Source: Octopus vulgaris
Taxonomy: Eukaryota
DNA: 64,000 nt
Direction: 5' to 3'
NCBI GenBank assembly: GCA_951406725.2
Contig: OX597818.1
Span: 93,062,001-93,126,000 of the forward strand
The translations under genes and the position numbers were made by a program. The notes under the pieces are model-generated. The model was not told the DNA's origin and did not search any database. It saw only the letters and a program-made list of their open reading frames with translations. Every line of letters begins with the position of its first letter. Position 1 is the first letter of the stretch. Positions 47,947 through 48,650 of the stretch are shown piece by piece.

Positions 47947-48650
47947 GGGTACAGGACGTCATAAAACGTAAACAACATGAAATACGAAATACGGAAACAT
48001 GGAATACGAACTTTTTTTGGCGATCAACTAAAGAAACACATGGAAAATAAGAAAAGTAACATAAAGAACGATCGTTCATCAGTTGTCGACTGTTTTATCT
48101 ACTCTACATTTCGAGCAATTACGACAAGATGTGTTTTCGAGAAACAGTTGCTCCCGCAAAGCAAAATAAGATTTAGGATTAGCGGAGGGTCAAAGTTGGT
48201 AACAAAAACAGGACAGGGAAAACAAACAGTAATGGCTGCTAAGCCAAAACGAGGTGAGGTGGCGAACGGTGGATGAACAAGCTTTAACAGGAGAAAAGAT
48301 AGGAGAGGAGACAGACAAGATTGCGTGTGATCTGTGTGGCAGATCAAAAGGAAAGAAAGGATCTCATGTTAGGAAAAGAAAGATGGTCGATGGTCACGTG
48401 TGAGCAACGAGAGAGTAAAGGAGGAAGAGTGGGAAAGAGAGAGGACAGATAGAGAACGGTAAAGGGAGAGGAAAAGAATCTGAGAAAGGATGAGAGAGAA
48501 AAAAACGAAAGGGGGAGAAGGGGAGATAAAGAGAATTAGAGACAGGAAGAGAGAGGAAACGAAGTGGGGAGAGACAACAGTACAGAGAGTCGCATCAAAA
48601 TTATTAAGATAAACTTCCTTAGAAATGGATGCGTGGCGTTCAGTCATAAT
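47947..48650 (-). mobile_element. solitary Penelope-like pseudo-LTR/3' segment inserted in (TA)n
   Basis: Same layout as the 778-bp unit: ORF-end-like KEVYLNNFDATL, CT-rich tract, CACGTGACC motif, structured ribozyme-like domain. Flanked by TA repeats. Confidence 0.6.
48076..48153 (-). ncRNA. non-circularly permuted hammerhead-like ribozyme (family 2)
   Basis: GAGCAA-CUGUUU-cucgaaaac-ACAUC^UUGUCG-uaa-UUGCUC-GAAA-UGU-agaguagaua-AAACAG-u-CGACAA-CUGAUGA. All four helices are Watson-Crick. Confidence 0.65.

Follow-up and report, generated by a model that had tools for sequence, protein, structure and literature searches.

A likely self-cleaving, split-core hammerhead on non-coding retroelements of Octopus vulgaris, probable relatives of Naiad Penelope-like retrotransposons

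The window investigated here, a stretch of 64,000 nt from contig OX597818.1 of Octopus vulgaris, carries on its minus strand the core letters of a hammerhead ribozyme in permuted order, and it does so in two families of different primary sequence. This raises the question whether the letters belong to a self-cleaving RNA and on what kind of element they travel. As judged from the comparisons below, it is likely that they form a self-cleaving hammerhead with a split core, located on a non-coding retroelement, probably a non-autonomous relative of the Naiad Penelope-like retrotransposons (PLEs).

Read on the minus strand, as is done for the core throughout, positions 48153-48076 contain II, X, III, UC followed by the cut, I, II', GAAA, III', X', I' and CUGAUGA, that is, a full hammerhead core. 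Direct inspection of the letters placed helices II, X, III and I, the motifs AUC, GAAA and CUGAUGA and the upstream hairpin exactly where the first-pass annotation had put them (Table 1). Together with the flanking helices the strand order of the motif reads P0, H, IIa, X, III-UH, I, a short linker, IIb-GAAA-III', X', I'-CUGAnGA, P0'. In family 1, to which this copy belongs, the 5' strand of P0 abuts hairpin H, the hairpin abuts G10.1 and the 3' strand of P0 abuts A9. An outer helix after CUGAUGA had previously been described as not evident; for the window copy this is right insofar as two of the seven P0 pairs are lost, whereas the family as a whole has the helix, which is faint here because this copy is decayed (5/7 against 204/217 pairs). 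With one stem III pair lost in addition, the window copy may cleave slowly or not at all. A single U between X' and I', listed earlier as a kept feature, turned out to be C in 27 and U in only 4 of 31 copies. Rfam gave no match to the window at gathering score, and a scan of the window for canonical type I hammerheads found none.

Table 1. Window positions of both elements and of the parts of the family-1 motif.
Feature	Positions	Strand	Remarks
Family-1 non-coding element	47947..48650	-	BLAST extent over 30 genomic loci; 5' end approximate, 3' end into TA-rich tract
P0 5' strand (outer clamp helix)	48186..48192	-	204/217 pairs in 31 copies; 5/7 in window copy
Hairpin H, abutting G10.1 on its 5' side	48154..48185	-	198/217 pairs; 6/7 in window copy
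Stem II 5' strand (IIa), first base G10.1	48148..48153	-	177/186 pairs
Helix X 5' strand	48142..48147	-	172/186 pairs
Stem III 5' strand	48130..48133	-	108/124 pairs; 3/4 in window copy
U16.1, C17 and first base past the predicted cut (48128/48127)	48127..48129	-	AUC ends at 48128
Stem I 5' strand, start of the predicted 3' product	48122..48127	-	167/180 pairs
3-nt linker and stem II 3' strand (IIb, 48118-48113), ending in C11.1	48113..48121	-	sequence reading, family pair counts
G12-A13-A14-A15.1 (48112-48109) and stem III 3' strand	48105..48112	-	CGAAA invariant in alignment A2, partly through selection
X 3' strand (48095-48090), 1-nt spacer, stem I 3' strand (48088-48083)	48083..48095	-	sequence reading, family pair counts
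C3-U4-G5-A6-U7-G8-A9 core at the 3' end of the motif	48076..48082	-	intact in 28/31 copies
P0 3' strand, immediately 3' of A9	48069..48075	-	2 substitutions in window copy
Family-2 array, about 2.7 units of 778 bp, three ribozymes	59658..61748	-	predicted cuts 61360/61359, 60582/60581, 59804/59803

The proposed pairings are kept throughout family 1, as the counts in Table 1 document; they refer to 31 complete copies from 30 loci, collected by DNA similarity, with one 5'-truncated copy excluded. Genome-wide, the 181-nt region gave 3144 first-look candidates, 40 of which were scored, and the other full-length ones are 87-92% identical. The GAAA block is intact in 23 of the 31 copies. Variation within the family looks like neutral decay, with little covariation in it. 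Mostly one ribozyme occurs per locus (within 3-kb loci), and the copies have a common 3' end inside the TA-rich tract.

The permuted order also held up against randomization: the descriptor matched four sites in the window and none in 150 dinucleotide shuffles, both strands included. These four sites are the family-1 copy and three near-identical family-2 copies at 59.8, 60.6 and 61.4 kb. In the genome, a pattern made of the core motifs only gave 974 matches in comparison to 40 for its reversed control, and a second pattern of the Naiad-consensus type 369 in comparison to 0. Most of the 30 motif-only loci that were fetched fall into several sequence groups with different stems, in which P0 and H are again present. 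In viral contigs the motif-order pattern occurs in at least 120 stretches; the 80 that were listed were inspected and none of them carries the fold.

Since the stems of different families came out misaligned when 38 motifs were aligned by sequence alone, pairs were counted on anchors instead. Each stem was scored at a site chosen on another stem, with the motifs as anchors, which limits circularity. The anchored set (n=40) consisted of 18 of the 30 motif-only loci, the two window copies and 20 descriptor hits; the motif-only loci left out were six 5'-truncated ones, four near-duplicates and two in which the central match had been replaced by another copy. Among 18 representatives less than 80% alike, six came from the motif-only search and ten from the pairing descriptor, because of which the rates for own partners are inflated. 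With this proviso, stem I forms 87 of 90 pairs against 51% with swapped partners (site chosen on stem III) and stem III 53 of 54 against 50% (site chosen on stem I). The 89 of 90 pairs of stem II, against 56% swapped, are inflated by a position chosen on pairing, and P0, positioned on H with zero spacer, reaches 50 of 72 pairs against 35%.

Most stem positions show three to four Watson-Crick pair types among the representatives, and the cut site picked by stem I is the one picked by stem III in all 40 anchored sequences. While every stem varies, C3-U4-G5-A6, G8-A9, G12-A13-A14-A15.1, U16.1, a non-G at 17 and G10.1-C11.1 (G-C in 18/18) are all kept, the core motifs being at the same time the search anchors. 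The distance from the cut to G12 is 13-16 nt in 18/18 representatives, and their NUH triplets are GUC (9), GUA (3), AUC (2), GUU (2), AUU (1) and CUC (1). An AUC triplet is present in both window families (48130-48128 and 60584-60582); it is described as rare among natural hammerheads yet fast once folded (PMC1636495).

How does this arrangement relate to known hammerheads? In the scheme of Eckert et al. (2023) a hammerhead consists of the blocks S, G and C, each assumed to be uninterrupted, with at most one to two inserted bases tolerated in block C (PMC10085705). Similar to type SGC (HRIMA-1 and variants) and type CSG, the motif has the core letters, the S-to-G adjacency through a short I-to-II linker, a double pseudoknot and, in helix X, the interaction helix that joins the far ends of stems I and II. 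SGC and CSG types with the same linker and interaction helix do cleave, and the text of that paper gives only two known CSG sequences (PMC10085705). In contrast to both types, block C (I'-CUGAnGA-IIa) is split: IIa is the 5'-most and I'-CUGAnGA the 3'-most strand, and P0 and H are inserted. The strand ring thus corresponds to the non-circular SGC/CSG ring opened between A9 and G10.1, the gap being closed by P0 and H. In types I-III, SGC, CSG and GCS, A9 is followed by stem II within 0-2 nt; in the representatives the bases after A9 do not form this stem. The motif fits none of the six described permutations and would presumably work as hammerheads do. Viroid hammerheads can have one base inserted at the A9-G10.1 link. 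An extra nucleotide in the hammerhead core is, going by its title, the subject of a paper from 2001. Hammerhead variants with additional helices or other permutations are mentioned in a 2026 paper. Searches of the open-access literature found no report of a hammerhead split at A9/G10.1 and none of permuted hammerheads in Naiads. The earlier reading of a permuted fold is supported; what it missed is that the link from CUGAUGA to stem II is broken and replaced by the P0/H junction, and that the motif leads to the Naiads.

The S-G-C order of the motifs by itself equals that of type SGC. That we are dealing with an ordinary SGC hammerhead, whose stem II is formed by the bases right after CUGAnGA while the upstream pairing is incidental, can practically be dismissed, as only 2 of 18 representatives have a G immediately 3' of A9. 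Stem II placed there averages 1.8 of 5 pairs compared to the 89 of 90 of the upstream strand, itself chosen on pairing, and this candidate was rejected.

In the split fold, stems I, II and III would build an ordinary hammerhead active site. A9 would run directly into P0' and H would lead into G10.1, mostly with spacers of 0-1 bases, and in our model P0 stacks on H and stem II on the core, giving a four-way helical junction. With such short spacers, the strands from A9 to P0' and from H to G10.1 are the crossover strands expected of a four-way junction; in family 2 the junction is looser, with spacers of about 2 nt. Helix X would hold stems I and II together at their far ends, and the chain would be turned back by a kink-turn or by a bulge of 2-5 nt between III and X. 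A strict kink-turn pattern at this place (3-nt bulge, then tandem G-A/A-G) is found in 10 of 38 motifs by raw count. Its carriers are family-2-like and Naiad copies, several other motifs have a 2-5 nt bulge there, and the family-1 window copy has a purine-rich loop between III and X outside the strict pattern. Because CUGAnGA and P0' are transcribed last, the cut would be possible only after the 3' part of the element has been made.

The second family of the window is organized as a tandem array (Table 1), which ends at an internal TATATA 146 nt past its last predicted cut. In the genome 2279 first-look candidates were obtained, and the 40 that were scored are 99-100% identical; with 99% identity the family is evidently young. 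Its insertions have a fixed 3' end at the internal TATATA, running into (TA)n, and variable 5' ends, whereas internal units read on past the hexamer; arrays carry at most three ribozymes. The fixed end together with the read-through units fits target-primed reverse transcription that starts by annealing at UAUAUA, with a circle or an uncut multimer as template. None of the sequencing runs listed is recorded as RNA. The family-2 unit is covered by contigs from four runs taken on a guess for RNA; neither ends nor joints are visible in them and they were set aside. Directly upstream of the array lies an inverted duplication of about 150 bp (about 61750-61930 and 62060-62280). At five loci (L037, L042, L048, L065, L068) two different split-hammerhead families occur less than 3 kb apart, which suggests that the families share (TA)n targets and are present in very many copies overall.

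The tandem arrays of family 2 bear on the possibility that the active site forms between two molecules or tandem units, so that no doubly pseudoknotted monomer would have to be threaded. Such dimer cleavage has been described for newt and ASBVd hammerheads (PMC6155905), and for several natural copies nested minimum-energy folds form P0, H, X and III, a nested fold being unable to add I and II. Even in a dimer, however, the break between A9 and G10.1 would still need P0 and H as a bridge. Moreover, no palindromic helix is conserved across the families, Naiad contigs have one copy each, and the related SGC and CSG types cleaved during transcription of single-motif constructs (PMC10085705). We consider a dimeric site unlikely.

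If cleaved RNA is reverse-transcribed as well, the copying should end at the cut, and genomic copies truncated at their 5' end were inspected for junctions with (TA)n. The search asked for TATA no further than 25 nt 5' of an anchor that begins 6 nt past the cut and hence samples positions -19 to +6. For family 1, all 16 rows correspond to 12 loci, of which 12/12 lie at 0 to +6, three of them clearly at 0, and none of these truncated copies keeps a base 5' of the predicted cut. For family 2, a hand count gave 25 distinct loci among the matches listed (100 rows of 620). Of these listed loci 22 lie at 0 to +6 (11 at 0, three at +2 to +4, eight at +6), one at about -3 and two at about -14. Under a uniform null p amounts to 1e-7 for family 1 and 3e-10 for family 2, and the accumulation of 11/25 family-2 junctions at one site has p 0.006 even with only five usable sites. 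The +6 peak coincides with an AT step and with the edge of the search pattern, and junction positions are biased by T/AT microhomology. Yet the four-base ATAT microhomology at about -14 drew far fewer junctions than the one-base site at 0. Minus-strand junction counts of family 2 were 72 in the interval at the cut, 26 at +12 to +37 and 7 at -42 to -17; as these three anchors differ in subfamily coverage, we rely on the comparison within an anchor.

Because the truncated genomic copies begin at the predicted cut or immediately 3' of it, self-cleavage is likely. This pile-up is the strongest functional sign and speaks, indirectly, for cleavage in vivo. A structured 3' signal without catalysis, for loading of the reverse transcriptase (RT) or for packaging, could in principle keep hammerhead-like letters, with the pile-up arising from RT stalling or a host nuclease. 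The structures do lie where a PLE RT would engage its RNA, and the second peak at +6 (8/25 listed loci) implies that microhomology shapes the pattern. The weak attraction of ATAT at about -14 (2/25 junctions against 11 at position 0) is at odds with this explanation, as is the retention of catalytic core positions, which are also search anchors, amid varying stems. Furthermore, by position 0 the partners of I, II, III and X lie behind the RT, already copied, which leaves little structure for stalling. A purely structural role is very unlikely. A selected permuted fold with a cut between 48128 and 48127, as first proposed, is thus supported by the covariation between families, by the shuffles and by the pile-up at that very bond.

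From read-through transcripts or tandem ones the cut would release RNAs of unit length. Some of these may be ligated to circles or left uncut as multimers. A PLE reverse transcriptase/endonuclease would then nick (TA)n and prime at the internal UAUAUA about 150 nt 3' of the cut. Running off at the cut end would yield truncated copies, and passing through would yield arrays with at most three ribozymes.

Which PLE comes into question? Naiads target (TA)n, and they have been reported to be without canonical hammerheads, some of them having a core yet missing the descriptors (Craig et al. 2021, PMC8557442). The supplement marks 17 Naiad rows as HHR_core or HHR_half_core, and the passages of that paper on the 3' core motifs propose no fold for them (PMC8557442). 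By eye, Naiad consensus passages in the supplement show the order P0-H-II-X-III-I and the full split fold near their 3' ends. The window elements thus have in common with the Naiad 3' regions the (TA)n targeting and the core motifs near the 3' end; unlike the Naiads they are non-coding. Insertion preference for (TA)n, fixed 3' end and variable 5' truncation, all Naiad PLE traits, are present in them. Within the window elements there is no open reading frame (ORF) with N-terminal GIY-YIG, CxC and DKA motif plus RT, and tblastn of three Naiad proteins against the window gave no match. The second family had been regarded as independent of the first. This part probably does not hold: since the same fold with its extra helices sits in Naiad retrotransposons, the families are likely distant relatives rather than separate inventions, and the covariation would be one among homologs.

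At one locus with a GUA-type ribozyme, the same strand has an RT fragment some 1.1 kb upstream. Relatives of this RT were taken as centres of 30 loci: in 11 the ribozyme follows downstream in sense, and in none does one lie upstream or antisense within 1.5 kb. Full-length relatives of this RT have the N-terminal GIY-YIG, CxC and DKA of the Naiad signature. Of 2725 candidate Naiad RT remnants 150 were scored; the best of these share 57-83% identity with the query fragment and are in many cases broken, and those scored look old. In 5.3 kb upstream of the L124 ribozyme no Naiad ORF was found.

Among the best 80 of at least 440 metagenome Naiad contigs the complete fold occurs in 10, always in sense, nine times downstream and once upstream of the ORF; each contig has one copy and two contigs are near-identical. 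Shuffled Naiad contigs gave 11 core matches in 40 sets, that is 0.28 per set. P0 and H, which were no selection criterion, outscore at least 95% of flank shuffles in 9 of the 10 contigs. The fold carriers are spread over three parts of the RT tree (81 rows, midpoint-rooted, without a clade test). The other 70/80 contigs are without the fold, some with very short tails and many with long tails without CUGAnGA; the split fold is therefore not universal in Naiads. Canonical type I hammerheads were found in 0/80 contigs, and Rfam gave no match on 20 (nine with and 11 without the fold). The 3' regions of fold-less contigs (L161-L240 set) may hold another RNA motif that has so far gone unrecognised. 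No Naiad relative was found in viral contigs. Several Naiad-like proteins (P0026-P0039) contain a ubiquitin C-terminal hydrolase domain (UCH, PF00443), located C-terminally in P0039; these are UCH fusions in the style of L026-L028 and L187-L189. In nematode Naiads (Naiad_Hcon, Naiad-2/-3_Nbra; PMC8557442 supplement) the unsplit type-CSG order with an X helix is seen by eye. The split form could be derived from CSG via tandem duplication.

Other retroelements are present as well. A young Neptune-type PLE (L362-L365) has open frames of 683-753 aa with C-terminal GIY-YIG and a Zn-finger linker, and an upstream ORF in two loci; none of its four loci carries the split fold. At one of them (L364) a minimal type I hammerhead lies 1.1 kb downstream. 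The RT could be supplied either by a Naiad-type or by this young C-terminal-endonuclease PLE. The window further contains canonical PLE RT fragments in a decayed state, with the DKG motif, and a fragment resembling GIY-YIG (53311-55016, minus strand, and 56126-56848, plus strand). A young RLE-type LINE at 29074-30090 (minus strand; 150 scored copies with 96-100% identity) has a short 3' UTR ending in (TAA)n, and in 30 loci of this LINE family no split fold was found.

The non-LTR retrozymes of animals are likewise non-coding, have a single ribozyme in each of their head-to-tail units, are dispersed as monomers and short arrays and are linked to PLEs (PMC7229834; bioRxiv 10.64898/2026.07.22.740005). 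Family 2 agrees with the retrozyme definition of non-coding tandem units that each contain a ribozyme, with at most three per array. The retrozymes carry type I hammerheads (PMC7229834), in contrast to the split form found here, and type I descriptors, with which they were discovered, would miss the latter. Accumulation as circular RNA is a further retrozyme trait; for the window elements circles are hypothetical.

Altogether, we think it probable that Naiads and the non-coding elements depending on them use a seventh natural hammerhead topology not described before, in which the catalytic strand is broken between A9 and G10.1 and kept together by a four-way junction, with cleavage in vivo recorded by truncated insertions. 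It would have been re-permuted from type CSG, which nematode Naiads appear to keep, via tandem (pLTR) duplication. Such a ribozyme breaks the stated rule that CUGAnGA must lead straight into stem II, and its junction, which opens next to the active site, lends itself to the engineering of switchable hammerheads. The truncation pile-up offers a genome-only route to the in vivo cleavage sites of retroelement ribozymes. The finding implies that a whole class was missed by descriptor-based surveys of ribozymes and retrozymes; if true, non-circularly permuted hammerheads would be abundant in animal genomes and not a rarity of metatranscriptomes. It is also a candidate answer to the question why Naiads, dominant in many invertebrate genomes, seemed to be without the ribozyme of other PLEs.
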